NCBI GenBank assembly: GCA_963836755.1
Contig: CAWIKF010000001.1
Location: 103,506 to 167,505, forward strand
Source of the DNA: an uncultured Verrucomicrobiae bacterium
GTDB lineage: Bacteria > Verrucomicrobiota > Verrucomicrobiia > Chthoniobacterales > Chthoniobacteraceae
DNA: 64,000 nt
Direction: 5' to 3'
Shown here: positions 3,271 to 41,249 of the stretch, in pieces
Position numbering within the stretch: the first letter of the stretch is position 1
Layout of the letters: the number at the start of each line of letters is the position of its first letter
Notes under the pieces: generated by a model
Told to the model about the DNA's origin: nothing
Seen by the model: only the letters and a program-made list of their open reading frames with translations
The model's database searches: none
Translations under genes and position numbers: made by a program

Positions 3271-3343
3271 GCCGGCATAGCTCAGTTGGTAGAGCAGCTG
3301 ATTTGTAATCAGCAGGTCATCGGTTCGAGCCCGATTGCCGGCT
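3271..3343 (+). tRNA. tRNA-Thr (anticodon TGT/UGU)
   Basis: 73-nt cloverleaf: acceptor GCCGGCA/TGCCGGC, D arm GCTC-AGTTGGTA-GAGC, anticodon arm GCTGA-TTTGTAA-TCAGC, T arm ATCGG-TTCGAGC-CCGAT. CCA not encoded. Confidence 0.93.
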
Positions 3344-10837: not shown

Positions 10838-11015
10838 AGTTTAAGACATTTGAGGGCGAAGCTGGGATCAACACTAACCCGGGATATCGGAAAAAGTTTC
10901 GCGAGTATTTGCCGCCGAAGTGATTATGCGAAGATATTTTTCTGAGGTGCCACCGGCCAGCGGGTGAATCGACTCCCGTCTTTTTCAATGAAGACCTCGA
11001 CGCACAGGAGCAACA

Positions 11016-13421: not shown

Positions 13422-13440
13422 CAGCCTGCTACCTTTATCC

Positions 13441-15705: not shown

Positions 15706-15745
15706 CGGGTAGTTTAGTCAAAGTCCCGTGCCCGAGTTTTCATCG

Positions 15746-16531
15746 CTAATCTGACGAACGCGGGACGGTCAATCGCTTGATGCCTTCCACAGTAAAGTCG
15801 GCGTCGGTGTAAGTCACATCATGCCGGATGCGAGAGCCATCGAGTTCGGTGGATGAACCGGGTCGCGGGCCGCGCACGGTAAGATTTGCAGGGATCTGAT
15901 GGCCGGCGTCGGCGACGACTCGGGTAGTGTCGATGCGGCGGAGTAATTGCCCGGAACTAGAATATTTCTCGACGCGGAGTGGGACGATGCGCCGTGTGTC
16001 GATCCAGCTTCTCACGCTGCCATAGGTGGAGCGTTCGCCTTTGCCGGGCTTTGATTCGAGGATCTGGCAGTTCACGCCGTCCACGTCTTCGGCACCGACT
16101 ATCGCCTGCCGGTCCCACGCGAAAAAGTTCTCGACGATGTCTTCATACGAAAGGTCGCTGCCGAGCAGCGATGCTTTCACGTCTTCGATTGCGCGTAAGG
16201 TGTCCGGCGGCACGAAGGCGGAACCGCTGGCCGGGCGGTTGCCGATCTTCCGCAGCAGCACGGACTCGCCTTTGCGCTCTTTCGGGAAAAGGACCTGATA
16301 GACGACTTCGGTCGCGCTCGCGGTGCGGCGCTGTTTGATCTGAAGCTGGAGAGTTTCCTCCGCGGCGCCTTTGATGTCCATTTTCAAACGCACATAAGAC
16401 GCGCCGCCCTGCTGGAGTGCGCTGAGGCGGGAGGCGAGTTCGCTTGCACTGGCCGGTGCTGCGTCGCCGGCGGCATGCACCTTGAAAGCGATAGCGACGC
16501 TCATGATCGAGATCAGACGGAAGGAGTTCAT
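15746..16531 (-). CDS. LolA-like outer-membrane lipoprotein-sorting family protein
   Basis: 261-aa ORF with signal peptide and the LLGSDLSYEDI motif typical of LolA-like (PF17131-type) proteins. Last gene of the PKS/ABC operon. Confidence 0.75.
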   Translation of the reverse strand: MNSFRLISIMSVAIAFKVHAAGDAAPASASELASRLSALQQGGASYVRLKMDIKGAAEETLQLQIKQRRTASATEVVYQVLFPKERKGESVLLRKIGNRPASGSAFVPPDTLRAIEDVKASLLGSDLSYEDIVENFFAWDRQAIVGAEDVDGVNCQILESKPGKGERSTYGSVRSWIDTRRIVPLRVEKYSSSGQLLRRIDTTRVVADAGHQIPANLTVRGPRPGSSTELDGSRIRHDVTYTDADFTVEGIKRLTVPRSSD

Positions 16532-16544
16532 ACGATTTGATTCG

Positions 16545-17660
16545 TCAGCCCTGCAGCGCGTGGCTCGGTGTCAGCCGAGAGCTGCGCCACGCGGGATAGA
16601 GGCCGCTGAAGACTCCGACGACGACAGCGATGGCGACGGAGGTGGCGAGGAGGCGCGGGTTCAAGTCGGGTTCGAGCAGCCCGCGGATGGCGGGTGTATT
16701 GACGAGAACTTTTACGCCGACGATTCCGATCAGCGCTCCGCCGATGCCGCCGAGAAATCCGAGCAGCGCCGACTCCAACAAAATCATGCGGACGATGCGG
16801 CTGCGTTTCCAGCCGATGGCGAGCAGGACGCAAATTTCCTGTGTGCGCTCGAACACGGTCATCAGCATCGTGTTCATCACACCGAGCACGCCGACAAGCA
16901 CGGCGAGCAGCGACGTGCCCCAGCTCATCGCGCGAATCATTTTGTAAGCCTGGCTGTCCCGGATGTGTTCGCCAGCAACGACGGCGCGCGCCTCGGGCAC
17001 CACGCTGGTGATCTTTTCGCAAAGCGCGGTTACTTCGTCTTTCGTCGTGCCGGCTGTGACGCGCAGGTCGATGATGTTGATCTTGCCTTCGTTACCCGTG
17101 AGCGACTGGAGCAGCGGCAGCGAGAGAATGACCGAGCCATTCTCGACCACTGCGCCGCCGTCCACGATGCCGACGACTGCGAGCTCCTCGGTTTCGAGCT
17201 GGAGCTTTTCCCCGACTTTCTTTTGCAAGATTTCCGCCGCGGTCTTGCCGAGCACGACAGCTTTCTCGGCCGCGTCCTTTGGCATTCGGCCGGACACGAG
17301 CTTGAGATTATTCCACGAAAAGCCTCTCCACTGCCGTGCGGAGACGATCATCATGTCGGCCTTTTCAACGCTCATCAAATCGACGAGGAGTGCACACGTT
17401 TCCGCGACGTGCGGCAACGGCGTGATGCGCTCGACGACGGACGCCGGGAACGGCTTCGGCGTGAGTGCGCTGCCCATGTTGCTCACCACCACGTCGGTGC
17501 CGCGCATTTTCATGCCCGTCTCCCAGCTCGTCTCGAAGCCGCGCGAAATCCCGACCAGCGCGACAACGGCGGCGATGCCGATGGAGATGCCGACGATGGT
17601 CAGCCCGGTGCGAACCGGACGCCGCATGAGTCCGCGAGTGACGACGGTGAGAAAAGTCAT
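16545..17660 (-). CDS. ABC transporter permease, FtsX/MacB-like
   Basis: 371-aa ORF: N-terminal TM, large periplasmic loop, C-terminal FtsX-type three-TM bundle. ATGA overlap with the ATPase stop. Confidence 0.88.
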   Translation of the reverse strand: MTFLTVVTRGLMRRPVRTGLTIVGISIGIAAVVALVGISRGFETSWETGMKMRGTDVVVSNMGSALTPKPFPASVVERITPLPHVAETCALLVDLMSVEKADMMIVSARQWRGFSWNNLKLVSGRMPKDAAEKAVVLGKTAAEILQKKVGEKLQLETEELAVVGIVDGGAVVENGSVILSLPLLQSLTGNEGKINIIDLRVTAGTTKDEVTALCEKITSVVPEARAVVAGEHIRDSQAYKMIRAMSWGTSLLAVLVGVLGVMNTMLMTVFERTQEICVLLAIGWKRSRIVRMILLESALLGFLGGIGGALIGIVGVKVLVNTPAIRGLLEPDLNPRLLATSVAIAVVVGVFSGLYPAWRSSRLTPSHALQG

Positions 17661-18358
17661 GATTGGTTGAGCCCGTCGGCGGCGATGCGTCCGTCCTTCA
17701 TCTCGATGACGCGGGCGGCCTGGCGAGCGATTCCCATGTCATGCGTCACGAGGATGAGCGTGAAATTTTGCTCGCGCCGCAAACGCACGATGAGGTCGAG
17801 AACGATCGCGGCATTTTCGCTGTCGAGATTGCCCGTCGGTTCGTCGGCAAGCAGCACCGATGCGCCATTCGCGAGGCTGCGCGCGATCGCGACACGCTGG
17901 CGTTCGCCGCCGGAAAGCTTCGCGGGAAAATGGTGCTGCCGTCCTTCGAGACCGACGAGCTTGAGCAATTCCGACGCGCGCTGTTTTCGCTCGGAGGCGG
18001 AGCGCTGTGTTTCGAACATCGGGATCTGCACATTCTCGATCGCCGTGAAAGTTGGCAGCAGATGAAAAGCCTGAAAGATGAAGCCGATCTCGTGCGCGCG
18101 GTAGGAGGCTAGGTCGCCATGCGCCGCCAGCGAGGCACCGCGATAGCGCAGCTCGCCGGAGCTGGGATGATCGAGTGCGCCGAGCATTTGCAGCAGCGTG
18201 GATTTTCCCGAACCACTCTGCCCGACGATCGCCACGAACTCACCCTGACTGATACGAAAGTCTACGCCGCGGAGTGCCTGCACCTGCCCATCGTCGTATT
18301 CCTTTTTCAGTCCAATCGCTTCGAAAACGCAGGCCGCGCCGTCAGTGGGAGACGGCAT
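17657..18358 (-). CDS. ABC transporter ATP-binding protein (LolD/MacB type)
   Basis: Walker A GQSGSGKST, signature LSGGERQRVAIARS, Walker B LLADEPT. ATG 18358 shares one base with the desaturase TGA (TGATG). The track ORF extends to 18415. Confidence 0.92.
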   Translation of the reverse strand: MPSPTDGAACVFEAIGLKKEYDDGQVQALRGVDFRISQGEFVAIVGQSGSGKSTLLQMLGALDHPSSGELRYRGASLAAHGDLASYRAHEIGFIFQAFHLLPTFTAIENVQIPMFETQRSASERKQRASELLKLVGLEGRQHHFPAKLSGGERQRVAIARSLANGASVLLADEPTGNLDSENAAIVLDLIVRLRREQNFTLILVTHDMGIARQAARVIEMKDGRIAADGLNQS

Positions 18359-19347
18359 CAGTTCAATGCCTGCTTCGCCATTTCCTGTCGCGTCGTTCTC
18401 GTCACTCCCAGCCACTGCGCGCCAACGCGCGGGTCTGGCAAATTGACGAAGAGGTCGTGCAGCGCCGCGCGAAAGGTGCGAAAGGGCGGGCGGTCTTCCG
18501 GCGCCGTCGGTGCGAGCGCCTCGACGTGCTGCGGCAGCTCGGGATGCGGCAGGCCGCTGCGCCAGTGATGCACGCCGTGATATGGCTCGTGGAGCAGCGT
18601 GAAGCAGATGAACTTTGCCTGCCAGCCTTCGGCGATAATGCTGCGCGTCGAGCTATTCACGGTGGCGCCGGTGAGGCCGACGTGTTCGACGTATTTGCGC
18701 AGGCTCTGCATATTCGCCGCAAGCCACGCGGGGATGAAATACATCCACCAAAAATATTTCCATGAGCCAAGCATCGCGTCCGTCGTGAGGATCGCCGTCC
18801 ACACCACCGCGATGATCGCGAATTCAATCCAAATCCGCCGGCGCAATTTCTTGTTCCGGATGGGCGAGCCTTTCCGCAAAAAAGTTCGCATGAAAAGGAA
18901 CGGCGTGAAAAAAATTCCCATCGCCAATTCGAGCAGCGCGGCGCCGACGCGTATCCACCGCGGCTTCTGCGGATGCACGAAAGGCCACAGCTCCTCATCG
19001 CGCTCAGACGCGAGGTAGGCGTGGTGCAATTGGTGCGCCGCGCGGTAGAGGCTGAAGCTCATCAGGCTGAAGACACCGAGGATGATGCCGCCAATTTCAT
19101 TGAGCTGCCGGTTCTTGCGCAGCAGCCCGTGCGAGGCCTCGTGAAAGCCGATCAACAGCCCGTGCATGAGGTGGCTCACCATGAGCGCGAGCGGCACGGC
19201 GAGCCAGTAGTTGTTGCGATATAACGCGAACACGAGTGCGGCTTGCATGAAAAAGAAAAGCGCTTCGAGCACGGCAAAAGCCGCCCGGCTGATCCAGTGC
19301 GGTTCGTGCGCTTCGACTGTTTGCTCGGCGGTGATGGCGGTATGCAT
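18358..19347 (-). CDS. Membrane fatty-acid desaturase family protein
   Basis: Three His boxes HEASHG, HQLHHAY, HGVHHW plus TM helices. ATG 19347 lies 5 nt after the upstream stop. The longer track ORF (to 19623) runs through the upstream gene. Confidence 0.88.
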   Translation of the reverse strand: MHTAITAEQTVEAHEPHWISRAAFAVLEALFFFMQAALVFALYRNNYWLAVPLALMVSHLMHGLLIGFHEASHGLLRKNRQLNEIGGIILGVFSLMSFSLYRAAHQLHHAYLASERDEELWPFVHPQKPRWIRVGAALLELAMGIFFTPFLFMRTFLRKGSPIRNKKLRRRIWIEFAIIAVVWTAILTTDAMLGSWKYFWWMYFIPAWLAANMQSLRKYVEHVGLTGATVNSSTRSIIAEGWQAKFICFTLLHEPYHGVHHWRSGLPHPELPQHVEALAPTAPEDRPPFRTFRAALHDLFVNLPDPRVGAQWLGVTRTTRQEMAKQALN

Positions 19348-19351
19348 CGCT

Positions 19352-20701
19352 TCAGGTGGTGAGAACGGCCGCTGGAACGTCTTCCGGCAGGCATGCTTCG
19401 ACCAACACAGTCTCGAATAGCCGCGCGAGATTTTCCACGTCGGATTGTGGAAAAAGTTTCGGGCGGAAAAGCCATACGACTTCGAGTTCGTCCTCTTGCT
19501 CAGTGATTTCGCACGCGAGGTGAAAGCGCGCCGTGCCCGTCGAGCGCATCCGCAGTTTCGCCGAGAGGCCGGGCAGCTCGATGTCGGGCACCGGATGATT
19601 CTGCAAAGCAAAGCGCACTTCAAAAATCGGGTTGTGGCCCGGCGCTGCCGAATCGCCGAGTGCGCGCATTAACTCGGCAAACGGCATCGCATTCGCGAAG
19701 CAATCGACGGTCGTCTGATGCACCGCGCGCACGCTTGCGGGAAACGGTCGCGCGTGATCCGCGCGTCCCCGCAGCGGCACTATCCCAGCGAAGTATCCCA
19801 TCGTTTCGTCGAGAGATTGCTTCGTGCGATTCGCTACCGGCGTGCCGACGACGATGTAGTCCGCACCGGTCCAGCGCGAGAACGCTAGCTGAAATGCCGC
19901 CAGCAGCGTGCTGAAGAGTGTCGCGCTGCAACGGCGCGTGAGCTCGCGCGCGGCGCTCGCGAGGTCGGCAGGGAAATGGTTGACGATCCGCTGCGGCGAC
20001 CCCGACGCAGTGTCCGATCCTTCAAGATGACTCCAAAGCCGCCTATGCCCCGCGAGGTGCGATTTCCAAAATGCCACGCGCGCCTCCATCTGCGATGGCT
20101 GCCAAAACGCGCGTTCAGCGGCGCCCCACGCGGTGTAGCTTTGCGCCACGGTCGGCAGCGATTCGTTGATGCCGCGCACGCGCTGGAAGTAGGCGAGGCA
20201 AAGTTCCTGGATGAAAAGCCCGAGCGTCCATCCATCAGCGATCGCATGGTGAATCGCGAAAACGAGCACGTGGTCGTCCGGCGCGCGGCGCAACAGTTCG
20301 ACGCGATAGAGCGGCCCTTGCAACAGATCGAACGGCTTGTTGAAAATCTCCCGCGCAATTTCCTCGACGGCCTCAGGCGAGCACTGCGACGGCGACAATT
20401 CGCGGAAGCGAAAACTTACTGGACCATCCTCGCGGATCATTTGCAGAGGTCGATCTTTGCCCGGAAGAAAAGAGACACGCAGCGCTTCCTGTCGCTGGAC
20501 GACTTGCAGCAGCGCGCCCTTGCCATCCTCGGGGGTCACCTTGCCGCGCACTTCGATGAGGCAGCAGATATGGTTCGCGACATCCGCCGCAGGCACTGGC
20601 GACGCCTCCCACAATTCGCGCTGCGGAAAGGTCAGCGGCTGGAGGCGGATTTCGCCGCGCTCCAGTTTCTGTTTCAAGAGTGCGCGTTTGTCGGCGGACA
20701 T
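19352..20701 (-). CDS. Free-standing condensation-domain protein (NRPS C / PapA-like acyltransferase fold)
   Basis: 449 aa from ATG 20701. Intact HHAIADGW (HHxxxDG) motif at about 20227-20255. No A, T or TE domain attached. Confidence 0.85.
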   Translation of the reverse strand: MSADKRALLKQKLERGEIRLQPLTFPQRELWEASPVPAADVANHICCLIEVRGKVTPEDGKGALLQVVQRQEALRVSFLPGKDRPLQMIREDGPVSFRFRELSPSQCSPEAVEEIAREIFNKPFDLLQGPLYRVELLRRAPDDHVLVFAIHHAIADGWTLGLFIQELCLAYFQRVRGINESLPTVAQSYTAWGAAERAFWQPSQMEARVAFWKSHLAGHRRLWSHLEGSDTASGSPQRIVNHFPADLASAARELTRRCSATLFSTLLAAFQLAFSRWTGADYIVVGTPVANRTKQSLDETMGYFAGIVPLRGRADHARPFPASVRAVHQTTVDCFANAMPFAELMRALGDSAAPGHNPIFEVRFALQNHPVPDIELPGLSAKLRMRSTGTARFHLACEITEQEDELEVVWLFRPKLFPQSDVENLARLFETVLVEACLPEDVPAAVLTT

Positions 20702-20708
20702 GACTGGG

Positions 20709-23700
20709 CTAGCGCGCGGCGCCGTGCGGATCGACGTTCTCGTCCGTGGTCGTTTCCGCACCGAGCAGGCTCTCGATGTCCTCGTCGGAAAGCGATTCGA
20801 GATCGACCTCCTCGGTCGCCACGACTTCGGCAGGCGCTGCGGCCGGTGCCGGCGCGGCCGCCGTGGTCTTGCCGCCCATGTGGCCGGCGATGAGCGTGGC
20901 GATCTGGCCAATGGTGCGGGCGCGCATAAGGCTCGTTGGGGGAAGGGCGACGCCGGTGGTTGCTTCGAGCGAATTCTCGATTTCGACGCCCATTAACGAA
21001 TCCAAACCGAGATCGGTCAGCGGTTGGTCGTCGCGAAGACTGTCCGGTTTCACGCGCAGGACGGAGCCGACGACTTCGCGCACGGCGGCAGCAATGATCG
21101 GCTCGCGTTCATTTGCTGGAGCTGATTCGATCTTATTTCGCCAGTCGCTCGTCACGCCGCCGCCTTCCTGATTTTCGACGGATGAGAGGATGCGTTCGAG
21201 CAGCGGATTTTCGGTCATGCTGCGGAAGAACTGCCGCCACTTCGCCCAATCCACGCGGATCGCGGCGACCTGCGTATTGCCGGCGACGAGCGACGATTCG
21301 AGGATCGACATCACTTCGCCTGGCGAGAGTTCAGTCGTGCCTTGCCGCGCGAGGAATTCGGCGACGCGTTCGTTGCGCGCAACGTAGCCTTCGCCGCCGA
21401 GCACGCCCCAGTTCATCGTGAGCGCGGGCAGGCCGAGTGCGCGACGGTGATGCGCGAGCGAGTCGAGGAAGGCATTGGCCGCGCCGTAATTTCCCTGCGC
21501 TGGATTTCCGAAGATGGTCGAGATGGACGAGAACATGACGAAGCAATCGAGCTTCATGTCGCGCGTGCCTTTGTGCAGCAGCCATGCGCCGTAGGCCTTC
21601 GGCGCCATGACGGTGCGCATCCGTTCGCGGTTGAGCGCGGCGAGCGGCGCGTCGTCGATGACCATCGCGAGATGGAAGACCCCGCGCAGCGGTTGATCGC
21701 CCGCGCGAATTTCCGCAAGCAGTCGCGCGATGTCTTTGTCCGAGCCGGCGTCGGCTTTCACCACGCGCACGCCGATGCCGCGGTCGCGCAGGCTTTGCAC
21801 GAAGGCTTCGCGTCTCGGGTGTCGCGGCGCCGCTGCGGCTGCTGAGCACGAGGTGCCGCGCGCCGCATTTCACCAGCCATTCGGCGAGCACTTTGCCGAA
21901 GCCGCCGAACGCGCCGGTGATGAGATAGCAGCCGTCCGGCTTGATCGCGAACGGCGGCGGGAGCGGTTCGCCGCGGCGCGGCACGAAGGCTTCGGGGAAT
22001 GACGACGACGACTTTGCCGATGTGCTTGCCGCTCGCCATGAGCCGGAACGCGGCGTCGATGCGGCACGCCGGGAAGGCGCGGAACGGCAGCGGGGCGAGC
22101 GCGCCCTTTTCCACGAGCGCGGCGATTTCGCCGAGCATGTCGCGCGTGAGCGATTCGTCGCCGCTGAAGACGGCGTCCATCGCGACGACGTGGAAGGAGG
22201 CGTTGCGGCGCAGATTCCACAGCGGGATGCGCGAGTTTTGGTAGATGTCGCGCTTGCCGATTTCGATGAAGCGGCCGAACTCCGAGAGGCACGAGAGGCC
22301 CATCGGAATGGCTTCGGCGGCGAGTGCGTTGAGGACGACATCCACGCCGCGGCGGTCCGGTGAGTTCCATCACGGCTTCGGCGAAATCGCCGCGGCGCGA
22401 ATCGATCACGTGCTTCACGCCGAGCGTTTCAAGCAGGGCGCGCTTGGTCGCGCTGCCGGCGCTGGCGATGACGGTCGCGCCGAGATGGTGCGCGATCTGA
22501 ATCGCCGCCATGCCGACGCCGCCCGCGCCCGCGTGGACGAGAATCGTTTCGCCCTTGCGGATGCGCGCGACGTTTTTCAGCGCGTGCCACGAAGTCATGA
22601 AGACGACTGGCAGCGTCGCCGCTTCCTCGAACGAAAGCTTGCCGGGGATGCGGCGCACATCGCCGCCGCGCGCGAGCGTCTGCGTGGCGAGGCCGAAGAC
22701 GGCGAGGCCGAAGACGCGGTCGCCGGGCGCGACGTGCGTGACGTCGCTGCCGACCGCGCGGACGATGCCGCCGATTTCGTCGCCGAAGATGCGCGCGTCC
22801 GGAGCTTCGCCGGGGTAAAGCGCGAGCGCCTTGAGCACATCGCGGAAGTTCATGCCCGCGGCTTTGACATCAATGAGCACTTCATTCGGCGCGCACGCTG
22901 GCAGTGCGAATGGCGCGAAGCGCAGCGTGTCGAGGTGGCCGCGCTCGCGCGATTCCAGGCGCAGCGGGATTTCTGGCGCGAGCGTTTGCTGCACGGTCGG
23001 GCGGCCGCGCGAGAGGCGCTGCACGTAGCGCGCGTCGCCGCGGAAGGCGACTTCGCGCTCGATGTCGGCGCGCTGCAATTCGCGCCAGAGCAAGGCGGCA
23101 TCAGCCTCGGAAGGCGACGGCGGCAAGTCGATGCCGCGGCAGGCGAGATTCGAGTATTCGTTGAGGATGACGCGGAAAAGTCCGACGGCGGGCGCTTGCG
23201 CGACGGTCGTGGCGAACGGCTCGCGGCCCACGGCTTGCGCGCCGCGCGTGATAGCGTCGATGCGCACTTTGCCGCCGGGGTTTGTAGCTTCGAGCGCCTG
23301 CGCGAGGTGCAGCAGCGCGTCGGTGCCCATGAGCGCGTCGGCGGGTTCGGCGGGAGCGTCGAGATTCCACAAATAGACGATGCGCTCGACCGGCGGTTCG
23401 AGGAGCTGCTTCAAATCTTCCGGTGCCTCCGCGCGCAAGACGGTGCGGCAGCGGGCACCGGCGGCGCGAATCTGCGCGGCGAGTTTTGCGCCGAGTCCGG
23501 CGGCATCGGCGAAGATGAGCCAGGATTTTTCGGCGGGCGCATCGGTCGGTGTGGACGCGATGGGCAGTGTGGACCACGCCTTTCGCGCGAGGGCACAGAA
23601 CTGGCCCTCACCGCCGGTCGGACCGATGAGGCCGGGGAGCGATGCGGTCTCGCTGAAGCCCACGCCCAGCAGCGCGCGCTCCCACTGCGCGCGGTCGAGC

Positions 23701-26700
23701 AGCGGCTGCTCGGGGCGCAGATCGCGGTCGGTGAAACGCCACCAGCCGCTGGTGAGGCCGAAGACGGTTTCGGTCCAAAGCATCGGCGTCGAGGTGTCCA
23801 TGAAGACGAGGCTGCCGCCGGGGGCGAGCAGGTCGCGCAGGTGGCCGAGCGTCGCGCGCACGTCGCTCACGGCGTGGAGCACATTGGTGCCGATGACGAA
23901 GTCGAACGAGTCCGCGGCGAGGTCTTGCTCGGTGCCGGATTTTTCGAGGTCGAAAATCTTGCACTCGACTTCGGGAAACGCGGCGAGCTTTTGCATCGCG
24001 CCGGGGAAGAAGCCCGCGGACACGTCGGTGAATGTGTAGCTGTGCAGTCCGCGCTGGAGCAGCGGGAGGACGTGCGCGGCGAGGCCGGCGGTGCCGCCGC
24101 CGACTTCGAGGATGCGCAGGCCGCGGCCCTCGGGCAGATGGCGCTCGGCCTCCTGCAACGTCGCGGCGATGGCCGCGAGCCACTGGCTGGTGTAGAGGCC
24201 GTCGCCGTAAAATTGGTCGAGCAAGTCTGCATTGGAGCCGGCGAAGAGCACTTGAACGGCTTCTTTTTCACCGCGCAAAATCGGGCCCAGTTCGGCGCAA
24301 TTTCCGGCGCAGAGCAGCGCCTCGGGAAGGTGGCCGGACTGCGAGCCGACGAACGCGCGCATTGTCTTCGTCGCGTTTTTCGCGGCGGTGGAAAATGTGG
24401 GCGTCGCGCGGTAGGCGTCGGCTTCTTTTGTCAAAAGTCCGCGCTTCACGAGTGTGGACATGAGGCGCTCGAAAACGGGCTGCATCGCGGCGGCGACCTT
24501 GAGCGACTTCGCGCTGAATTTTCCGCGTGCGCCCATGTCGCGCAGGCCGCGCGCGAGCTGTGATGCGGCGAGGTCGTCGCCAGCGCACATTGCGGCTTGG
24601 AGTTCTTCGCGGCCGCGCGTGGCGAGGACTTCGTCGAGCGCGTGTGCGGCGGCGGCGTGGAGTTGTTCGAGCGGGAGTGGCTTGGACGGAGTGGGCGCGA
24701 CGGACGCGGGCGTGCGTTCCCAATCGACGTGATAAAGCACGTCGCGCGTGCCGCCTGAAACGCCTGCGCGGCGGATGCCGGCGACGCTGATGGCGCGGAA
24801 GCCATCGACGAGCACGCACGGCTGGCCGGCGTCGTCGTAGATGCCGAGGCGGCCCTCGAAGAATTCGTCGTTGCAGTGGACTACGCTCGCGCGCACGCGC
24901 GCCGACGCGCCGGGCGTGCGGAGGAAAAGGATGCGTCCGAAACGCACCGGCAGCTTCATGCTCGAGCCGCGCGTCTCGACCGTCGAGCGGCCCGCGGAGA
25001 GGACGTGCAGCGCGCCATCGAGCAGCACGGGGTGCAGCGGATATTCGTCCGCGCGCTTCGCGATTTCCTCCGAGAGCGCGACGCGGCCCTGCGATTCACC
25101 CGCCGCCGCCGAGAGCTCGCGGACCGATCGGAACTCATCGCCGTATTTCAAGCCGAGGTCGGCCATGTAGCGGTAGAATGCCTCGACCTCGACAGGCTGC
25201 AGCGACGGATTTGCGTCGAGCGTCGAGTGGGCAAACGGCGACTCGGTGCGCTCGCCGCGCATCGAGCCGACGACGTGCAGCGACCACGACGCGCTGTTTT
25301 CAAAGCGGCTCTGAATGGCGAACGTGCGCTCGTTTTGATCGTAGGAAAACTCGATGCTCACGCCGGACGCGGGCTCGGGCAGGATGAGCGGTTTCCGGAT
25401 TTCGAAATCCTCGACGACGAACGCGCGGCCCTCGAACAACTGCACGCCGGCTTCGAGCACCAGCTCGACGAATCCGGCGGCGGGGAAGATGACATGACTG
25501 TCCACTTTGTGGTCCTTGAGGAAGGCCATGTGGCGCGCGTCGAGGCGCGCGACCCACGTGGGCGTGGCGCGCGGCAGACGGACATCGAACATGCCGCGTC
25601 CGCCGGGCGCGAGGCGGCCTTCGCGCCAATCGGCGGCTTCGTTCCACCAGCGCGCTTTGTCCCACGCGTAGGCGGGCAGCGCGAGCAGGCGGCGCGAGGG
25701 CGTCATCGCGGCGAAGTCGAGTGCGACGCCGGCGCGGTGCAGGTCGGTCGCGGTTTCGAGCAGCGACTCGTGCTCGCGTTCTCGGCGGGCGGAGGAAAAG
25801 ACAGGCGCCTTAGTGGTGCGCGCGGCGAGACATTCGTTGATGGATTGGACGAGCGCGGGATGCGCGCCGATTTCGAGCCACACGTCCACGCCGAAATCCG
25901 CGAGCGCATTCACCGCGGGCGCAAACTGCACGGGCTGCCGCACGCCGCGGCCCCAGTGCTCTGCGTCGCACGTTTCGCCCGCGCAGCGTTCGCCGGTGAC
26001 GGTGCTGAAAAATGGAATCGTGTCCGGCTGCGGCGCGAGATCGGCGATGGCAGCTTCGAGTTCCTCGGACGCGGGCCGCATGAGCGGGTGATGGAACGGA
26101 TGATCGACGCGCACGAGCCGCGCGAAGACGCCTTGCGGTTCCAGTTCGGCGAGCATCGCTTCGAGCGAAAGGCGCGGGCCGGCGAGGGTCAACGAACGCG
26201 GGCCGTTGATCGCGGCGATCGTGACCGTGCGGTCGTGGCGCGAGATGAGCGTGCGCGCTTCGTCTTCGCCGAGGCCGACGGCGAGCATGGTGCCTTCGCC
26301 GCGCGCGCAGCCATCCATGAAACGCGAACGCAGCACGATGACGCGCGCGCCTTCCTCAATGCTGAACACACCGGCAACGCACGCTGCGGCGATCTCGCCA
26401 ACGCTGTGCCCGACCACCGCCGCCGGCTCGATGCCCCACGAACTCCACAGCGCCGCGAGCGACACCTGCATCGCGAAAATCGCGGGCTGCGCGACTTCGG
26501 TGCGGTGCATTTGCGACGCCGCTTCGTCGCGCGCGAGTTCGTCGAGCAGCGAAAATTTCGCCCACGGTTTCATTGCGACGGCGCAGCGCTCCATCGTTGC
26601 GCGGAAGACCGGTTCGTGCCGCATAAGTTCGCGGCCCATGCCCCACCATTGCGGACCCTGGCCGCTCATCACGAAGGCCACGCGCGGCGCGTGCTCGGGG

Positions 26701-28300
26701 CGCGGGGTGAAGCTCGTGCGCGCCTTCACCGTCTCGCCTTTGACCCCGAATGCGTCGAGTTCCTGCACCAATTCGGGCATCGAATTCGCGATGACGGTGA
26801 GGCGGTGCTGATGATGATTGCGGCGCGCGCCGAGCGAGTAGACGAGGTCGGGCAGCATCGGCGAATCACCGTTGGCGTGCGCGCGCTCGTCGAGCCACTT
26901 CGCGAGCTGGAGCGCGGTGCCGCGCAGCGCTTCTTCCGAACGCGCGGAGAGGACGATGGGCCAAGGGCGTTCGACGGGTTCGTCGGCATGTTCATGGTGC
27001 GGGCGATGCGGCGGCTCCTCGAGGAGGACGTGCGCGTTCGCGCCGCCGAAGCCAAATGAGTTCACGCCCGCCATGCGCGGCCCGACCGTTTCGGGGAAAG
27101 GCTCGAGCGTGGTGTTTACGCGGAGCTTCAGCTTCTCGAAATCGATGTTCGGATTCGGCGTTTCAAAATGGAGATTCGCGGGAATCTGCCGGTGCTTGAG
27201 GACGAGCACGGCTTTGACGAGGCCGGCGACGCCCGCGGCGGTTTCCAAGTGGCCGAGGTTCGTTTTCACCGAGCCGATGACGAGCGGCTCCGTGCGGTCG
27301 GCGCAGAGTGCTTCCGCGAGCGCGTGAGCCTCAATCGGATCGCCGACCGCGGTGCCGGTGCCGTGCGCTTCGACGAAGCCGATCCGCGAGGGCGCGACGC
27401 CCGCGAGCTCGCAGGCGTCCTTCACGAGCTGCGCCTGCGCCTCGGGGCTCGGGAGCGAAATGCCGTTCGTGTGGCCGTCTTGATTCAGCGCGGTCGCGAC
27501 GATGACGCCGTGGATCGGGTCGCCGTCGGCGACGGCCTGCGAGTAGCGCTTGAGCAGCACCATGCCCGCGCCTTCGCCGCGCACGAAGCCGTTCGCGGAG
27601 GCGTCGAACGCCTTGCACTTTGCCCTCGGGCGAAAGCATCGACGCCTGCGAAAAGCCGATGAAGCCGCCAGGGGTGATCATCACCGTCACGCCGCCCGCG
27701 AGCGCGGTGTCGCCGCGGCCGGAGCGGATGTGCTCGCACGCCGCATGCACGGCGGTGAGCGCGGACGAGCATGCCGTGTCCATCGCGACGCTCGGTCCGC
27801 GCAGGTTCAGGCAGTAGGAAATCCGGTTGGCGGCGATGCTGTGCGCGCTGCCCGTCGGCGAATGCGCGGTGATGCCCGTGCGACTCCCACGGCGTGCCTT
27901 GGATCACTTGGTAATCATTGTGCGAAATGCCGACGAACACGCCGATGTCGGTGCCGTTTTCAAAATCGAGAACCAAACCTGCGTCTTCGATCGCCTCCCA
28001 GGCCGTCTCAAGAAGGAGACGTTGCTGGGGATCGACGTAGGGCGCCTCGCGCGGTGAGATCCCGAAAAACTGCGGGTCAAACTGATCGATGCCATCAATG
28101 AAGCCGCCGCGCCGCGCGACTGACTTTCCGACAATTCCTGGCTCGGCATCGTAAAAACGCTCGACATTCCACCGATCGGGCGGCACGTCGCCAACGGCCT
28201 CGCGACCCTCGACTAAAAGTTTCCAGAGCGCGTCCGGGTCGTTGACTCCTCCGGGAAATCGGCAACCAATTCCGATGATGGCAATGCGGTCTTTGGGCAT
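20709..28300 (-). pseudogene. Type I polyketide synthase KS-AT-DH-cMT-ER-KR-ACP, frame broken at five points (pseudogene or indel errors)
   Basis: One gene reconstructed from track ORFs 27485..28300, 27331..27783, 21870..27584, 21758..22345, 21331..22341 and 20709..21800. Anchors: DTACSS (Cys 27772-27774), GHSVG (26397-26411), HKVDSHVIFPAAG (~25478-25515), ILEVGGGTAGL (~24085-24115), LVHAGAGGVGM (~22510-22542), ITGAFGGFG (~21901-21930), LGLDSLMG (Ser 20997-20999). Frame switches at ~27871-27885, 27618-27622, 22348-22360, 21994-22003 and 21806-21816. Confidence 0.88.
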
Positions 28301-28469
28301 AAACTTTTAGCGTGCTGGAAGCGCGCGATTCACAGGTCGCAACACGGTTTCGTCAAGGTTCGATTTTTGTGCGGAGTTTTCAAAGCCTCCGCCTATTGGA
28401 CCTTGGTCTTACTCCGCTGGCACAAGAAACCCGTCGCCAACCAATGGCGTCCGCGTTAGAGGAAGAAAC

Positions 28470-30404
28470 ATGTGCGGCATCGCAGGCATTCTTGATCTCT
28501 CCGCGCGACGCACGGTGCCCGGCGAGATTGCCCGACAAATGGCCCGCGCCCTCGTGCATCGCGGTCCGGATGAAGAGGGTTTTCATTTCCGACCCGGCCT
28601 CGCGCTCGCCTCGCGCCGGTTGAGCATTGTCGGCCTCGCGGATGGGCAGCAGCCGGTGACGAACGAGGACGGGAGCGTTGTCGTGGTTTTCAACGGCGAA
28701 CTTTTCGATCATCTCGAAAAACGCGCGGAGCTGGAGGCGCGCGGACATCGATTGGTGAAGCACTGCGACACGGAGATCATTCCGCACCTTTGGGAGGAAC
28801 ATCAGCACGCGATGTGGGAGCGGCTGCGCGGGCAGTTTGCGATTGCGCTTTGGGACGAGCGACGACGGCGGCTCGCGCTCGGCCGCGACCGCTTCGGAAT
28901 CTGTCCGCTCTACTGGACGCGGCAGGGCGACTGGCTGCTCTTTGCGTCGGAAATTAAGGCGCTGCTTGCGTCGGGGATGGTGCCCGTGCGGCCGGACCGG
29001 CGCGGCATCGATCACATTTTTTCTTTCGCCGCGCTGCCGGGACCGATCACGTGCTTCGAGGGCGTGCAGTTGCTGCGCGCCGGGCACTACCTCGACATCG
29101 CGCCGGGCGGTGAAATCGTGGAGCGGGCCTATTGGGAAATGGATTTCCCCGACCATGGTGACGAGGAGCGCGGTGACGATCCGCGGAAACTCGTGGATGA
29201 ATTTGAGCGGGTCCTACTGCGTGCGGTGGATACGCGGTTAAAAGCGGACGTGCCGGTCGGCTCGTATCTGTCCGGGGGCGTCGATTCCAGCATGATCGCG
29301 GCGCTGGCCTGCCATTTGAAAGGCTCGGCAATCAACACCTACACGATTCGCGTGGATTCTCCCGAGCTGGACGAACTCGATGCTGCCAACCTCGTCGCGC
29401 GGCACATCAAGACAAAGCCGCCGGTCGTGCAGGAGTTTCGCGACAAGGACGCGGTAAATACTTATCCCGAGCTGATCCGAGCCGCCGAAGCGCCGGTGAT
29501 CGATACGTCGTGCGCGGCGCTGCTGCAGCTCGCGCGGCGCGTGCACGAGTGCGGGCAAAAAGTTGTGCTCACCGGCGAGGGCGCAGACGAATGGCTGGTC
29601 GGCTACCCATGGTATAAGGCGGCGAAGGTGATGGAGTATCTCGACATTCTGCCCGGCGTGCGGCTGAGCGACATGGCGCGGCGCAGCTATCTGCGGCTGA
29701 ACAAAGTGCCGCAATACCCGCGCGAATTTCGACGCGATGCCGAAGCTGCGGTTGGCGGCCCGAATGCGTGGATCGATTCCTACGGCCTGCTCGGCCTCTC
29801 AAAGCTCCGCTTTTACTCCGACTCGATGCACGCCATCCGCGAGCGGGCGAGGCCGTGGGAAGATTTGCAGATGCCGCTCGAACGCGCCAAGCGATGGCAT
29901 CCGCTCAACCGCGGCATCTGGATCGCGGGCCGCGTCACGCTCGCGGGACATTTGCTTCAGGCGAAGGGTGATCGCGTGTCGATGCATTCCTCCGTGGAAG
30001 TGCGGTATCCGTTTCTCGACGAGGAAGTTTTCGATTTCACGTCGCGCCTCGATCCGATGTGGAAATTGCGCGGCTTTCGCGACAAGCATCTGCTGCGAAT
30101 GCTCGCAGAGCGGTGGCTGCCGGCGTCAGTTTATCGGCGCCAAAAGGTCATCTTCCGCGCGCCGCTCGACAGTTTCCACATGGACCCGGAGCCGCCTTAC
30201 GTGGCGCAGCTTTTGAGCGAAGAATCGCTCTTGCGCACCGGCTACTTTGATCCCATCGCGGTGCAGCATTGGCGGCGCGCCTTTCGCCAAATGCGGCCGG
30301 GTTCATTGCCGCGGCTCTCGATTGAAGGCGGCCTCGCGGCAGTCGTGGCGACGCAGCTTTGGCACCACCTCTACATTGACGCTAGCCTCGCTGAACTGCC
30401 ATAG
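28470..30404 (+). CDS. asnB: Asparagine synthase (glutamine-hydrolysing) family amidotransferase
   Basis: 644-aa ORF. N-terminal nucleophile MCGIAG and PP-loop SGGVDSS. Divergent from the PKS with a 169-bp intergenic region. Confidence 0.9.
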   Translation: MCGIAGILDLSARRTVPGEIARQMARALVHRGPDEEGFHFRPGLALASRRLSIVGLADGQQPVTNEDGSVVVVFNGELFDHLEKRAELEARGHRLVKHCDTEIIPHLWEEHQHAMWERLRGQFAIALWDERRRRLALGRDRFGICPLYWTRQGDWLLFASEIKALLASGMVPVRPDRRGIDHIFSFAALPGPITCFEGVQLLRAGHYLDIAPGGEIVERAYWEMDFPDHGDEERGDDPRKLVDEFERVLLRAVDTRLKADVPVGSYLSGGVDSSMIAALACHLKGSAINTYTIRVDSPELDELDAANLVARHIKTKPPVVQEFRDKDAVNTYPELIRAAEAPVIDTSCAALLQLARRVHECGQKVVLTGEGADEWLVGYPWYKAAKVMEYLDILPGVRLSDMARRSYLRLNKVPQYPREFRRDAEAAVGGPNAWIDSYGLLGLSKLRFYSDSMHAIRERARPWEDLQMPLERAKRWHPLNRGIWIAGRVTLAGHLLQAKGDRVSMHSSVEVRYPFLDEEVFDFTSRLDPMWKLRGFRDKHLLRMLAERWLPASVYRRQKVIFRAPLDSFHMDPEPPYVAQLLSEESLLRTGYFDPIAVQHWRRAFRQMRPGSLPRLSIEGGLAAVVATQLWHHLYIDASLAELP

Positions 30405-30407
30405 GCG

Positions 30408-31178
30408 TCACGGCAATTTCTCGAGGATCTCGCGCCCGCGCTGCTTCGTCTCCGGATCATCCTTTTCTGTATCAGGCATCGAGAGGCCCTTGGTGATGAA
30501 GTTCCTCGCTTCCGCGGTTCTGCCCATCGCGGCATAGGTGCGACCGAGCTCGATGTAGTGCATGAGTCGATTCGGATTGAGCTCGATTGCTTTCTCGAAG
30601 CACTTCTCCGCATCTTCGTATTTTGCATGTGGCAGCTTGCCGTAGAGCATCTCCACCAGAGCGCGCTTTACGGTGCTCACATTGGCGACGTTGAAATACC
30701 AGCGACCGAGGACATGCCAGCCGAAGTCGTTCGTCGGGTCGAGCGCGATCACCTTGTCGGCAGCCGCTTTGATCACGCTCGAGTTGGCAAACTGCTCCTT
30801 GTTGCTTTCAAATGGCAACAGCTTTCCGAGGCTGATGGCCAGCGCGAGGTGCGCCTCCGGGTCGTCCGGTGCTAGCGTCACCGCACGCTGCGAATACTCC
30901 ACCGCCGTCTTGCCAAGCTCCACTTTTGCTTGGCGCTTCGTCGCGTCACTCATCAGATGCCGATATTGCCGCGCGATGCGCACCAGCAGGCGCGCGTTGT
31001 CTGGGTCCAGCTTTTCTGCCGGAAGATAAAAGTTCAGCGCCGCGGCCGGCTGTAGCTTGTCGTAAAAAACGTCGCCCTTTTGAATCAATTCCGTTGCCGA
31101 AACCGCACCGTTTCCCGTGCTCGCGAGTGCCAGCGCAGCCACTGCCGAGAGAGTGTAGACGAGAAAGGCGGGGCGCAT
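30408..31178 (-). CDS. Secreted TPR-repeat protein
   Basis: 256-aa ORF with signal peptide and repeated helical TPR-like units (AxxxFxKAIELNP type). Confidence 0.65.
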   Translation of the reverse strand: MRPAFLVYTLSAVAALALASTGNGAVSATELIQKGDVFYDKLQPAAALNFYLPAEKLDPDNARLLVRIARQYRHLMSDATKRQAKVELGKTAVEYSQRAVTLAPDDPEAHLALAISLGKLLPFESNKEQFANSSVIKAAADKVIALDPTNDFGWHVLGRWYFNVANVSTVKRALVEMLYGKLPHAKYEDAEKCFEKAIELNPNRLMHYIELGRTYAAMGRTAEARNFITKGLSMPDTEKDDPETKQRGREILEKLP

Positions 31179-31267: not shown

Positions 31268-32560
31268 TCATTTCTTCACCGCCGCCTCCACGAACCGGCC
31301 CGCGTTTAGAAGCTCCGCTTCGCTCAGCCGCGGCCCGATCAATTGCAGGCTCGCCATGGGAAAGTGGTCATGACGCAGGGGAACCGGCACAGCCAGCGCG
31401 GGGTTGCCGGCGAAATTTGCCGGCACCGTATTTTGAAGCTGGAGCGTGATCGCTTCCATAATTCCTACTTTGAAATTGAGGGAATATACTGGCGGCGGCT
31501 TCTGCATCGTGGGCAGCGCAATGAAATCTACTTTCTTGAAAATCTCCTTCAGTGTGTGCTGCCACGCGGCTTGTCTCGCGAGAGCCTGACGGTAAGAGGT
31601 CCGGTAGGCTACCCGCCCTGCGAGGATTACCACCTTTGACCGAAGGCTCACTCCCAGCGCGTAGCGGTATTGGCTGTCGCTCAGCCAGGCTCCGGTGGCG
31701 GCAATGGCATTGCCATCTTTTTTTGCTTGCTCCCATTTGTTGGAAAAATCTTCGTCCAGCGGGATCACCTGAAAGCCCGCCTTGGCCAGCGCATGGTCCA
31801 CGGCAAGGTCGACCTTCGGGTCCGTGTTATTCAGCTTTAGGCGTCCGATCCGGATAGTCGCCGCAGAAGGTTTGGCGACTTTCGCCGCTTCATATTTGGC
31901 AGCGAAATCATTCTCCAGCAGTTCCATGCCCTGCACGGTGCGGGTGATATCTTTTGCCATCGGGCCGACGGTATCGAGGTGCTTCGGCTCGATCGGATGA
32001 ATTCCTTTGAGAGAAACCAGGCCATGCGTCGTCTTCAAACCCACCACGCCGCAGCAAGCCGACGGCACTCGGATCGAGCCAGCCGTGTCCGTTCCGAAAG
32101 CTACGTCCGCCATTCCGCTCGCCACTGCTACCGCCGAGCCGCACGATGAACCTCCGGGGATGAGCTGTCGCAAGTGGTTGAATGGATTTTTTGGCGTTCC
32201 GAAATAATCGTTGATCCCGGACGGAGAGATCGCGAACTCAGTCAGATTCGTCTTGCCTACGAACTGCACACCGCGCTGCCGCGCAATCGCCAGACACGGC
32301 GCGTCCTTTTCTGCCGGCTTATGGGATTTCGCAAAAAGCTCCGAGCCCGCCGTGGTCACCACGCCCTTCATGTCGATGTTGTCCTTTACCGCCAGCCGCA
32401 GAGCGTGGCTGCCATGCGGCGGAGGCCAGTAGGCGATGAATGCGCGATTGCCCGAAAGTCTCGAATGAAAGCGCGGCAATATTGAACAACCGCCAAATAG
32501 GACGATTGATGCCAGCCCGACCGAAAACAATCTAAAGAAAGCGGGGCGAAAATCCTTCAT
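31268..32560 (-). CDS. Amidase-signature family amidase, probable lipoprotein
   Basis: AS motif GGSSCGSAVAVASG. ATG 32560 gives a signal ending LFGGC. The track ORF extends to 32797. Confidence 0.85.
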   Translation of the reverse strand: MKDFRPAFFRLFSVGLASIVLFGGCSILPRFHSRLSGNRAFIAYWPPPHGSHALRLAVKDNIDMKGVVTTAGSELFAKSHKPAEKDAPCLAIARQRGVQFVGKTNLTEFAISPSGINDYFGTPKNPFNHLRQLIPGGSSCGSAVAVASGMADVAFGTDTAGSIRVPSACCGVVGLKTTHGLVSLKGIHPIEPKHLDTVGPMAKDITRTVQGMELLENDFAAKYEAAKVAKPSAATIRIGRLKLNNTDPKVDLAVDHALAKAGFQVIPLDEDFSNKWEQAKKDGNAIAATGAWLSDSQYRYALGVSLRSKVVILAGRVAYRTSYRQALARQAAWQHTLKEIFKKVDFIALPTMQKPPPVYSLNFKVGIMEAITLQLQNTVPANFAGNPALAVPVPLRHDHFPMASLQLIGPRLSEAELLNAGRFVEAAVKK

Positions 32561-34529: not shown

Positions 34530-34569
34530 AAATTTTTCGAATGAAGTCCCTGCGGCTTCGTCAAACACC

Positions 34570-35686: not shown

Positions 35687-35689
35687 CCG

Positions 35690-36127: not shown

Positions 36128-36156
36128 AAAGCAGCCGCCGCGAGCGCGGACGATTT

Positions 36157-37479: not shown

Positions 37480-37480
37480 T

Positions 37481-41109: not shown

Positions 41110-41249
41110 AAATGGGGAGCCGAGATTAAAACGCGCCCGCCGCAAGTCAAGACGGAGCGGTTTTGATTTCGCCGCGCGGTTTTTCTATTCTGGAAAAATC
41201 TCCGCGCGAAAAAATCTAAAAATGCGAATCCCAAAAATCCTGAATCCCG

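Follow-up and report, generated by a model that had tools for sequence, protein, structure and literature searches.

A conserved gene block of Verrucomicrobiota that probably makes and delivers a polyketide-type envelope lipid

A block of genes in a 64,000-nt stretch of DNA from an uncultured Verrucomicrobiae bacterium (assembly GCA_963836755.1, contig CAWIKF010000001.1, positions 103,506 to 167,505, hereafter the window) encodes a type I polyketide synthase (PKS), a free-standing condensation enzyme (C enzyme), a desaturase-family membrane protein and an export module, and it is found nearly unchanged in hundreds of soil and freshwater Verrucomicrobiota (391 genome stretches carry a relative of the C enzyme, of which the best 80 were inspected). 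The locus is real, strongly conserved and functionally coherent, and on balance it is probably a pathway, conserved in Verrucomicrobiota, for an envelope lipid whose acyl chain is of the polyketide type. The original prediction, made from the letters of the window, described the structure of the locus rightly, and its sketch of the pathway is reasonable: a methyl-branched chain, its release as an ester or amide, its desaturation and its delivery to the envelope are the steps that we infer.

Organisation of the gene block

Six co-directional genes of the minus strand, whose open reading frames (ORFs) and junctions were read directly, occupy positions 15746-28300 (Table 1) with spacers of 4-13 nt or with overlapping stop and start codons. 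The PKS gene ends with a TAG stop codon at 20711-20709, 7 nt ahead of the ATG of the C enzyme at 20701, which in turn ends with TGA at 19354-19352, 4 nt ahead of the desaturase ATG at 19347. The desaturase and ABC genes share a TGATG stop-start overlap with the ABC ATG at 18358, the ABC and FtsX permease genes an ATGA overlap at 17660-17657, and the TGA of the permease gene (16547-16545) is separated by 13 nt from the ATG of the LolA-like gene at 16531. The single, tightly packed unit that had been proposed is therefore visible in the junctions themselves, but the distances of 8, 5 and 14 nt given for it were coordinate differences, the true spacers being 7, 4 and 13 nt. A longer ABC frame from GTG 18415 is probably not used; the product from the ATG, of 233 aa, is similar to the 237-aa orthologue of a related locus, L001.

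The gene of an AsnB-type amidotransferase diverges from the PKS gene across exactly 169 nt (28301-28469), as the original prediction had it. Its count of six genes plus AsnB stands as the core of the block but missed two further members, a secreted tetratricopeptide repeat (TPR) protein and a probable lipoprotein of the amidase family, with which the block often comprises nine genes. No sigma-70-like site was found in 28301-28469, the sole promoter-like site of the scan lying outside the region of interest, and the 24 terminator-like sites of the window, against 17.9 +/- 4.2 expected, included nothing usable. A search for a shared operator found no 8-9-mer widely common to the PKS/AsnB intergenic region of the window and 81 related regions, and the Rfam and tRNA scans gave no match near the locus.

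Table 1. Genes and intergenic region of the conserved block in the window
Feature	Positions	Strand	Product and family evidence
Secreted LolA-superfamily protein	15746..16531	-	261 aa; signal-like N-terminus, no lipobox; Pfam LolA_like PF17131, E 1.7e-25
MacB/LolC-type permease	16545..17660	-	371 aa; Pfam MacB_PCD + FtsX
ABC ATPase, LolD/MacB-like	17657..18358	-	233 aa from ATG; Pfam ABC_tran
Membrane di-iron FA_desaturase-family enzyme	18358..19347	-	329 aa; Pfam PF00487, E 8.5e-31
Free-standing condensation enzyme (C enzyme) of the non-ribosomal peptide synthetase type	19352..20701	-	449 aa, soluble; Pfam Condensation, E 9.5e-61
Type I PKS, KS-AT-DH-cMT-ER-KR-ACP	20709..28300	-	2528 aa after frame repair; Pfam on three ORF pieces
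Divergent intergenic region, PKS/AsnB	28301..28469	.	169 nt
AsnB-type glutamine-dependent amidotransferase	28470..30404	+	644 aa; GATase_7 + Asn_synthase
Secreted TPR protein	30408..31178	-	256 aa, signal peptide; TPR families and RMD1-3
Amidase-signature enzyme, probable lipoprotein	31268..32560	-	430 aa from ATG 32560; Pfam Amidase, E 5e-68

Conservation across Verrucomicrobiota

The C enzyme has more than 2000 relatives in the databases, and the best 120 of them are 68-100% identical and ~449 aa long, the few that are named by source being labelled Chthoniobacter. In the genome scan, which took one genome per GTDB species, the best 80 loci (60-84% identity of the C enzyme) all belong to Verrucomicrobiota and come from Chthoniobacter and other Chthoniobacterales, Candidatus Udaeobacter, Terrimicrobiaceae, Prosthecobacter (metagenome-assembled genomes, MAGs), Luteolibacter, Akkermansiaceae and Pedosphaera. 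A second scan, of metagenome contigs with AsnB as the query, gave 295 relatives, and the best 80, which are 73-90% identical, were examined. Identities as high as these, together with few duplications, are more in keeping with an envelope function that is inherited vertically than with a secondary-metabolite cluster of patchy occurrence.

Gene order was counted by tblastn of the window proteins against these related loci. The PKS gene stands directly upstream of the C gene in 74 of 76 genome loci, and the desaturase, ABC, FtsX and LolA-like genes follow the C gene in this order, with the LolA-like gene closing the unit, in 48 of the 56 loci long enough to show the module. AsnB lies divergently upstream of the PKS gene in 41/48 genome loci and adjoins it divergently in 49/57 metagenome loci, bearing out the linkage first seen in the window, and the TPR gene is found near AsnB in 48 of 63 metagenome loci and the amidase gene in 33 of 41 loci. 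Since the same order recurs in most related loci, the arrangement goes far beyond chance; gene order in relatives had been named beforehand as a point on which the prediction could fail, and it turned out to be conserved. The genes that flank the block in the window (the GH92 mannosidases on the left; RlmN-like, ECF sigma and CysN/D genes on the right) have no counterpart in the related loci, and the limits of the block are therefore placed at 15746 (LolA-like gene) and 32560 (amidase start).

Some variation accompanies this order. In one arrangement, that of the window, the minus strand carries the TPR and amidase genes, and in the other the plus strand carries the amidase gene and then the TPR gene. 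In L009 AsnB lies at the far end of the operon with the TPR and amidase genes relocated along with it. The same locus has two FtsX-type-sized genes in tandem. Four loci (L003, L010, L011 and L016, the last at 13057-19974) carry three genes inserted between the ABC and FtsX genes. The first product, of 370 aa, has no Pfam match, and the others are a patatin-like phospholipase of 1285 aa and a PGAP1-like alpha/beta hydrolase of 567 aa; insertions of the latter two kinds fit a lipid context. Five loci (L041, L049, L050, L062 and L075) keep the PKS, C and desaturase genes with no transporter directly downstream and, judged by size only, show no obviously common downstream ORF layout. Two PKS-C-desaturase copies occur on different contigs of some MAGs (L010 and L020, L048 and L057, L059 and L078), and one of the two locus copies of MAG LS1_sbin.21 is the patatin-containing variant.

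A polyketide synthase with a C-methyltransferase domain and without a release domain

Pfam models matched the PKS in the order ketoacyl-synt N and C, Acyl_transf_1, PKS_DH_N/PS-DH, Methyltransf_12, ADH_N/ADH_zinc_N, KR and PP-binding, which confirmed the KS-AT-DH-cMT-ER-KR-ACP order (cMT, C-methyltransferase; ACP, acyl carrier protein) that had been read from short motifs, all of which are present. The protein is a single-module, fully reducing type I PKS, collinear with an intact 2556-aa orthologue that scores 1208 bits on the Pks2 model. Neither a thioesterase (TE) nor a reductase domain was found by Pfam after the ACP, in agreement with the original reading, and only a tail of ~70 aa follows there.

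In an alignment of 75 sequences (74 intact orthologues and the repaired window protein) the catalytic positions are all invariant: C177, H312 and H350 of the KS, S632 of the AT, H930 and D1094 of the DH, the GGVG motif of the ER, K2233, S2256, Y2270 and N2274 of the KR, and S2433 of the ACP, a domain that also matches the ACP family of the highly reducing PKS (HR-PKS) SdgA. The same holds for the cMT (Methyltransf_12, E 4e-15), whose ExGxG residues E1398, G1400 and G1402, together with D1425 and H1475 of an NVLH motif, are invariant, so this in-line methyltransferase is apparently active. The specificity motif of the AT is HPFH. Malonyl-specific ATs carry HAFH at this place and methylmalonyl-specific ones YASH, and the resemblance to the former suggests a malonyl-type AT, in which case the methyl branches would come from the cMT.

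The end of the PKS consists of a variable Ala/Pro linker followed by a conserved acidic motif, VDLEALSDEDIDxLLG, and the N-terminus of the C enzyme has an invariant basic helix, KRALLKQKLE. The two suggest a docking pair between the synthase and the enzyme encoded immediately downstream.

Frame breaks in the polyketide synthase gene

The PKS gene has no uninterrupted reading frame in the assembly of the window, where its parts lie in three long ORFs and two short frame segments, with five changes of frame. An intact orthologue, the 2556-aa protein of L001, was taken as reference; the contig of this locus encodes exactly the C protein named Chthoniobacter flavus by NCBI, its cluster is intact, and tblastn showed it to be collinear with the window across all five frame changes. 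Nucleotide alignment to this orthologue revealed five uncompensated +1 insertions near 27881, 27621, 22358, 22003 and 21809, none of them in a long homopolymer. The repair that the original prediction had called for was carried out: deletion of the five bases restores one ORF of 2528 aa with no internal stop, 79% identical to the orthologue. No base is deleted, the corrected frame is free of nonsense codons and every domain is retained, and the eight other genes of the block, five downstream and three upstream of the PKS gene, are intact. One further +1 break, near 40679, affects a transketolase gene (39105-41184, minus strand), the N-terminal ~140 aa of which lie in another frame.

Similar frame changes were sought in 79 related loci that cover the PKS gene and were found in five (L003, L023, L026, L034, with seven changes, and L077). 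All five are MAGs of the 'MFDxxxxx.bin' type, and the MFD-LR MAGs are Nanopore-only and Medaka-polished (PMC12313526). Frame breaks hence occur in 5/13 Nanopore-only MFD MAGs and in 0/66 other loci, two Illumina 'MFD..._ilm_asm' bins being among the latter (hypergeometric p ~6e-5, calculated by hand). When the repaired ER-KR segment was used to look for an intact PKS of near identity, no match exceeded 89% identity over the full query, one partial match had 93% over 64% of it, and many short PKS fragments appeared on very long ENA/NCBI contigs. A near-identical member of the C family, P0121, is encoded on a contig of 2.3 kb, which does not extend as far as any of the frame breaks.

The five breaks are most likely consensus or assembly errors of the Nanopore type, and the gene is probably intact in the organism. 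The rival explanation, a true PKS pseudogene in this genome and with it an inactive or decaying locus, is unlikely. It could account for five frame-shifting insertions within 7.6 kb outside long homopolymers, with one other clear break in the remaining ~56 kb of the window, but a decaying gene agrees poorly with changes that are all +1, with the retained domains and identity to the orthologue, with intact genes on both sides, with the break of the same type in the transketolase gene and with the confinement of such breaks among relatives to Nanopore-only MAGs. Three of the six breaks of the window (27621, 21809 and 40679) adjoin CCGAG on the coding strand, which hints at a systematic error and could reflect miscalled bases at a methylation motif; this motif was picked after the fact and occurs 232 times on both strands of the window. 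Programmed frameshifting was rejected, as the five sites have no common slippery sequence and the orthologues read straight through.

The condensation enzyme

The C enzyme scores 206 bits on PF00668 (cut-off 30.6) and covers profile positions 5-433 of 456. The residues H151, H152, D156, G157 and W158 of its HHAIADGW motif are invariant in 105 orthologues, so that the stand-alone enzyme with an intact HHxxxDG motif proposed at the outset is well established. Searches of the PDB, with the single sequence (55 matches) and with a profile (best 60 of 62, E up to 10), retrieved elongation-type C domains of non-ribosomal peptide synthetases (NRPSs), namely Txo2, Txo1, TycC, bacitracin synthase, PvdL and LgrA, as well as the C domain of the PKS-NRPS hybrid PsoA, the stand-alone SgcC5 and, distantly, the CON domain of LovB. 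Txo2, TycC and the PsoA C domain are the nearest solved structures; in the single-sequence search SgcC5 reached 8e-23 and the PsoA C domain 2e-29, the latter improving to 8e-37 with the profile. Neither PapA5 nor VibH was among the matches listed (55 of the single-sequence search, best 60 of 62 of the profile search), and by Pfam the protein matches PF00668 only and no PapA family.

The original prediction had likened this enzyme to PapA5. A stand-alone HHxxxDG enzyme beside a TE-less PKS of the Mas type is indeed what the locus holds, but membership by sequence found no support in the PDB searches, and the comparison is therefore an analogy of role. The NRPS-type result lowers the kinship with PapA5, not the likelihood of a PapA5-like off-loading of the synthase. 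In a library of representatives at 50% identity, the nearest relatives outside the family are NRPS megasynthases ~25-32% identical, a figure that is all this list shows, swamped as it is by multi-C megasynthases with additive scores. The family appears to form a well-separated clade of free-standing NRPS-type C enzymes. The AlphaFold model of the enzyme is mediocre (pLDDT 67, pTM 0.57).

Pfam revealed no adenylation domain or peptidyl carrier protein (PCP) in the conserved block of the window, although genes elsewhere in the genome are possible, and the junctions are too tight for a small carrier gene to fit. A free or membrane-bound nucleophile is thus the probable acceptor, and the NRPS-type affiliation of the enzyme tilts the chemistry towards amide formation.

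Desaturase and export module

The His boxes of the desaturase-family protein (HEASH, HQLHH and HGVHH) do not vary among 79 orthologues, and a hydropathy scan shows four hydrophobic segments, so the protein has the three boxes and about four helices of a membrane desaturase. The best curated models, DesA, the hydroxylase GntB and the ketolase CrtW, are all matched far below their cut-offs, and no meaningful PDB match was found.

Downstream, the ABC ATPase scores highest on the LolD model TIGR02211 (247 bits against a cut-off of 308), followed by MacB and by DevA (183 bits, cut-off 296), and its Walker A, signature and Walker B motifs are conserved in 70 orthologues. The permease, encoded in an overlapping gene, has a large periplasmic domain with one hydrophobic segment on its N-terminal side and three on its C-terminal side (hydropathy scan), that is, the four-helix FtsX layout with MacB_PCD of a MacB-type transporter paired with its cognate ABC_tran protein; it reaches 60 bits on the lolCE model TIGR02212 (cut-off 362). 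Matches of the LolA-like protein in the PDB (4Z48, 9TP6 and 3BK5) are uncharacterised proteins of the LolA superfamily or of 'outer membrane lipoprotein-sorting' annotation, and by Pfam it belongs to PF17131 only and to no canonical LolA family. The LolA-like/MacB export module of the original prediction stands as regards a MacB-type permease and a LolA-superfamily protein, but the LolD, LolC/E and MacB cut-offs are not reached. No MacA/DevB adaptor and no outer-membrane or TolC-like channel was found in the block of the window, related loci not having been screened for adaptors. As the transporter genes are embedded in a lipid-biosynthesis operon, the cargo is presumably a lipid rather than lipoproteins.

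AsnB, TPR protein and amidase

AsnB scores 414 bits on TIGR01536 (cut-off 267), as expected for an asparagine synthase of the B type, and 395 bits on the XrtA/PEP-CTERM amidotransferase model TIGR03108, well below its cut-off of 817. With Cys2 and the PP-loop motif SGGxDS conserved in 117 orthologues, the enzyme looks active. The TPR protein has an N-terminal hydrophobic segment at residues 3-22. The amidase scores 230 bits on PF01425 and lies below every NCBIfam equivalog cut-off, and GatA was ruled out for it (184 bits against a cut-off of 481). The Lys and two Ser of its signature motifs (K, GGSS and GTDTAGSIR in the window) are invariant in 42 orthologues, and its N-terminus, MKDFRPAFFRLFSVGLASIVLFGGC, ends in a lipobox-like LFGGC, which makes it a probable lipoprotein. 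Simple hydropathy and inspection of the N-termini predict that the C enzyme and AsnB are cytoplasmic, the desaturase and the permease are in the membrane, and the LolA-like, TPR and amidase proteins are exported.

Comparison with known systems

The nearest functional analogue would appear to be the machinery of phthiocerol dimycocerosates (PDIM) and sulfolipids in mycobacteria, where Mas or Pks2 works with PapA5 or PapA1-2, DrrABC, MmpL7 and LppX. Both comprise a single-module, fully reducing type I PKS (which we infer to be iterative here) without a TE and with a free-standing HHxxxDG off-loader, and an ABC transporter with a periplasmic carrier of the LolA type, which here too would serve the outer layer. 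In contrast with PDIM, the methyl branches would stem from an in-line cMT that uses S-adenosylmethionine (SAM), combined with a putative malonyl-type AT, instead of methylmalonyl-CoA; the C enzyme is of the NRPS and not the PapA type; the transporter is MacB/LolC-like and not DrrABC-like; and the block lacks a FadD-type loader and an RND/MmpL transporter but has genes for a desaturase, AsnB, TPR protein and amidase in addition, in a Gram-negative verrucomicrobial host. For the export of PDIM, roles have been described for LppX, a lipoprotein of the LolA/LolB fold, for DrrABC and for MmpL7 (PMC11539658).

With LolCDE-LolA and MacAB-TolC the locus shares an ABC ATPase, a four-helix FtsX permease with MacB_PCD and, as a soluble carrier, a member of the LolA superfamily. 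It differs from LolCDE in the scores below the LolD and LolC/E (and also the MacB) cut-offs, in a carrier that matches PF17131 only and in a single permease gene in the window in place of LolC plus LolE, and from MacAB-TolC in the lack of a MacA-type adaptor in the window block. The heterocyst glycolipid system (an HglE-type PKS with DevBCA-TolC) likewise combines an envelope lipid made by a PKS, as is proposed here, with an ABC exporter of the MacB family, but the ATPase of the window falls short of the DevA cut-off, there is no DevB adaptor and no glycosyltransferase, the PKS architecture is another one, and a C enzyme takes the place of reductive release.

The domain order and the apparently active cMT are those of fungal HR-PKSs of the LovF/LovB type, the order being also that of animal fatty acid synthase, whereas here the protein is bacterial, the C enzyme is separate with an intact active site, and the genes stand in an export-module context. 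VibH has a free amine as acceptor. Like VibH and SgcC5, which stand alone, and like the C domain of the hybrid PsoA, the C enzyme would take its acyl group from a carrier protein, but from a PKS ACP bearing what is presumably a long reduced chain. Altogether, five features set the locus apart: the in-line cMT with a seemingly malonyl-type AT, the C enzyme of the NRPS type, the pairing of a LolC-type permease with a PF17131 carrier, the presence of a desaturase, and the trio of AsnB, TPR protein and amidase. That this combination is not a described pathway, as initially stated, agrees with the literature searched, in which neither a description of it nor a matching verrucomicrobial PKS cluster was found, although it may be listed as an anonymous T1PKS in genome-mining surveys. 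A review of aminolipids mentions only OlsF and GlsB homologues for Verrucomicrobiales.

Proposed pathway and alternatives

In the proposed pathway the synthase would act iteratively, like mycocerosic acid synthase or the fungal HR-PKSs, on a primer that is probably an acyl-CoA, with malonyl extension, as the HPFH motif of the AT suggests, and with alpha-methyl branches from SAM. Docked through its basic N-terminal helix on the acidic tail of the PKS, the C enzyme would move the chain from the ACP to a nucleophile that is not carrier-bound, most likely an amine, to yield an N-acyl amide lipid, a hydroxyl acceptor being less likely. The desaturase-family enzyme may desaturate or hydroxylate the product or the acceptor at the inner membrane, where the ABC/FtsX pair would extract the lipid as LolCDE extracts lipoproteins and pass it to the periplasmic LolA-like carrier bound for the outer membrane. 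AsnB may add a carboxamide, either to the head group or to the starter unit, and the periplasmic amidase and the TPR protein may process or assemble the lipid outside the cytoplasm. A bolder version of the pathway, offered tentatively, is a Lol-like route for a small lipid, in which a LolD/LolC-type extractor and a LolA-superfamily carrier move a SAM-methylated polyketide N-acyl amide lipid that is a standard envelope component of the carrier lineages, while the cytoplasmic amidotransferase and the periplasmic amidase lipoprotein form a cycle of masking and unmasking, or of remodelling, across the inner membrane.

Several observations weigh against an intact pathway of this kind. The PKS gene makes up 12% of the window and holds five of its six clear frame breaks, for which reason real decay of this copy keeps some probability. 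NRPS C domains normally take an aminoacyl acceptor bound to a carrier, for which the block has no gene. The proteins of the transporter remain below the curated Lol and MacB cut-offs, and eight of 56 loci lack a complete transporter module right after the desaturase gene; in two of these (L003 and L010) an insertion of ~7 kb is present and the locus ends before the LolA-like gene, and the other six have no adjacent transporter. The amidase is only 28-49% identical between loci and varies in position, so its link to the block is weaker. The promoter and terminator scan gives no evidence either way.

Other products and other chemistries have also to be considered. The locus might make a secreted specialised metabolite, such as a lipoamide or lipoamino-acid surfactant, a signal or an antibiotic, with the ABC/FtsX pair acting as a MacB-type efflux pump. 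A PKS with an NRPS-type C domain is typical of secondary-metabolite clusters, the ATPase reaches comparable scores on the MacB, DevA and bacteriocin-exporter models, the GC content of the cluster exceeds that of the left flank and some genomes hold two copies; yet strong synteny with 60-90% identity over several orders (in the best 80 loci per query) would be unusual for such a cluster, the block has no adaptor or TolC-like gene, and a LolA-superfamily carrier suits the hand-over of hydrophobic cargo within the envelope, which leaves this explanation improbable. Conservation this broad and tight speaks for a structural lipid of the envelope rather than for a secreted metabolite of particular strains. 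Within an envelope-lipid pathway, the C enzyme might instead form an ester, by transferring the chain to a hydroxyl of a diol, lysophospholipid or glycolipid as PapA5 and wax-ester synthases do. We consider this about as doubtful: stand-alone HHxxxDG acyltransferases beside Mas-type synthases do act so in mycobacteria, the block has no amino-acid-activating domain or PCP and the patatin-like phospholipase of the variant loci could make lyso-lipid acceptors, but by sequence the enzyme sides with NRPS C domains that form amides and with the C domain of the hybrid PsoA, PapA5 is missing from the PDB matches listed even when a family profile is used, and the conserved AsnB and amidase neighbours suggest amide chemistry. 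A somewhat poorer case can be made for AsnB acting first, as OxyD does, to give a malonamyl-type starter and a terminal carboxamide on the chain that the amidase, being exported, could later unmask. AsnB-type enzymes associated with PKSs make amide starters or amidate polyketide carboxylates, and AsnB is the most conserved partner of the PKS, with a common promoter region; that precedent, however, concerns type II PKS systems, and no sequence tie to OxyD-type enzymes was seen, the best score being for generic asparagine synthase and close to that on the PEP-CTERM-associated model.

Other genes of the window

The GC content is 62-68% in the lipid block (16000-30000), highest in the PKS gene, against 52-54% in the GH92/GH38 left flank (10000-16000), and 58-60% in the right flank; the contrast may stem from protein composition or from an old transfer. 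That left flank (6503-15705) encodes, for mannoside degradation, two GH92 alpha-mannosidases and a GH38 alpha-mannosidase of 1444 aa that carries lectin and Ig-like domains, a run of genes that is unrelated to the lipid block and absent from the related loci. Farther to the left, tRNA-Gly(GCC) (2846-2918) and tRNA-Thr(TGT) (3271-3343) lie in the 788 nt that separate a small ORF from a sugar transferase gene. To the right, at 34435-38383 and 50840-53470, there are genes for an extracytoplasmic function (ECF) sigma factor (two small ORFs lie downstream of it), for a CysN/CysD-like pair of sulfate adenylyltransferase and for a Ser/Thr protein kinase of 876 aa; none of the sigma factor, CysN/CysD-like and kinase genes is conserved beside the lipid block in relatives.

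On the minus strand at 47417-48519, two coding-like segments (47932-48519 and 47417-47956) lie in different frames with a 25-nt overlap, which may be either another frame break or two overlapping genes; the downstream segment, 47417-47956, has a peptidoglycan-binding-like C-terminus with weak HxsA and SleB matches. Also on the minus strand, a coding-like segment without a family match (49783-50148) stands directly upstream of, and in frame with, a Tet(A)-like major facilitator superfamily (MFS) transporter gene (48520-49746), with one stop codon between them.

Implications

Verrucomicrobiota, Chthoniobacterales and Udaeobacter in particular, rank with the most abundant bacteria of soil, and little is known of the chemistry of their envelope. 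The degree to which the block is conserved implies an undescribed class of lipid that could be common in soils. If the proposed pathway is true, it would be a case of LolA/MacB-type machinery that moves a lipid instead of a protein, and it would provide a bacterial counterpart of the fungal-type C-methylating HR-PKSs, with release in trans by an NRPS-type C enzyme and no carrier-bound acceptor. A practical consequence concerns genome annotation, since a GC-rich PKS gene that is repeatedly broken by indels in Nanopore-only MAGs would be mis-called a pseudogene. The locus is carried by the contig with the C protein named Chthoniobacter flavus and by Prosthecobacter MAGs, and the pathway would be directly testable if cultured strains of these bacteria hold it.

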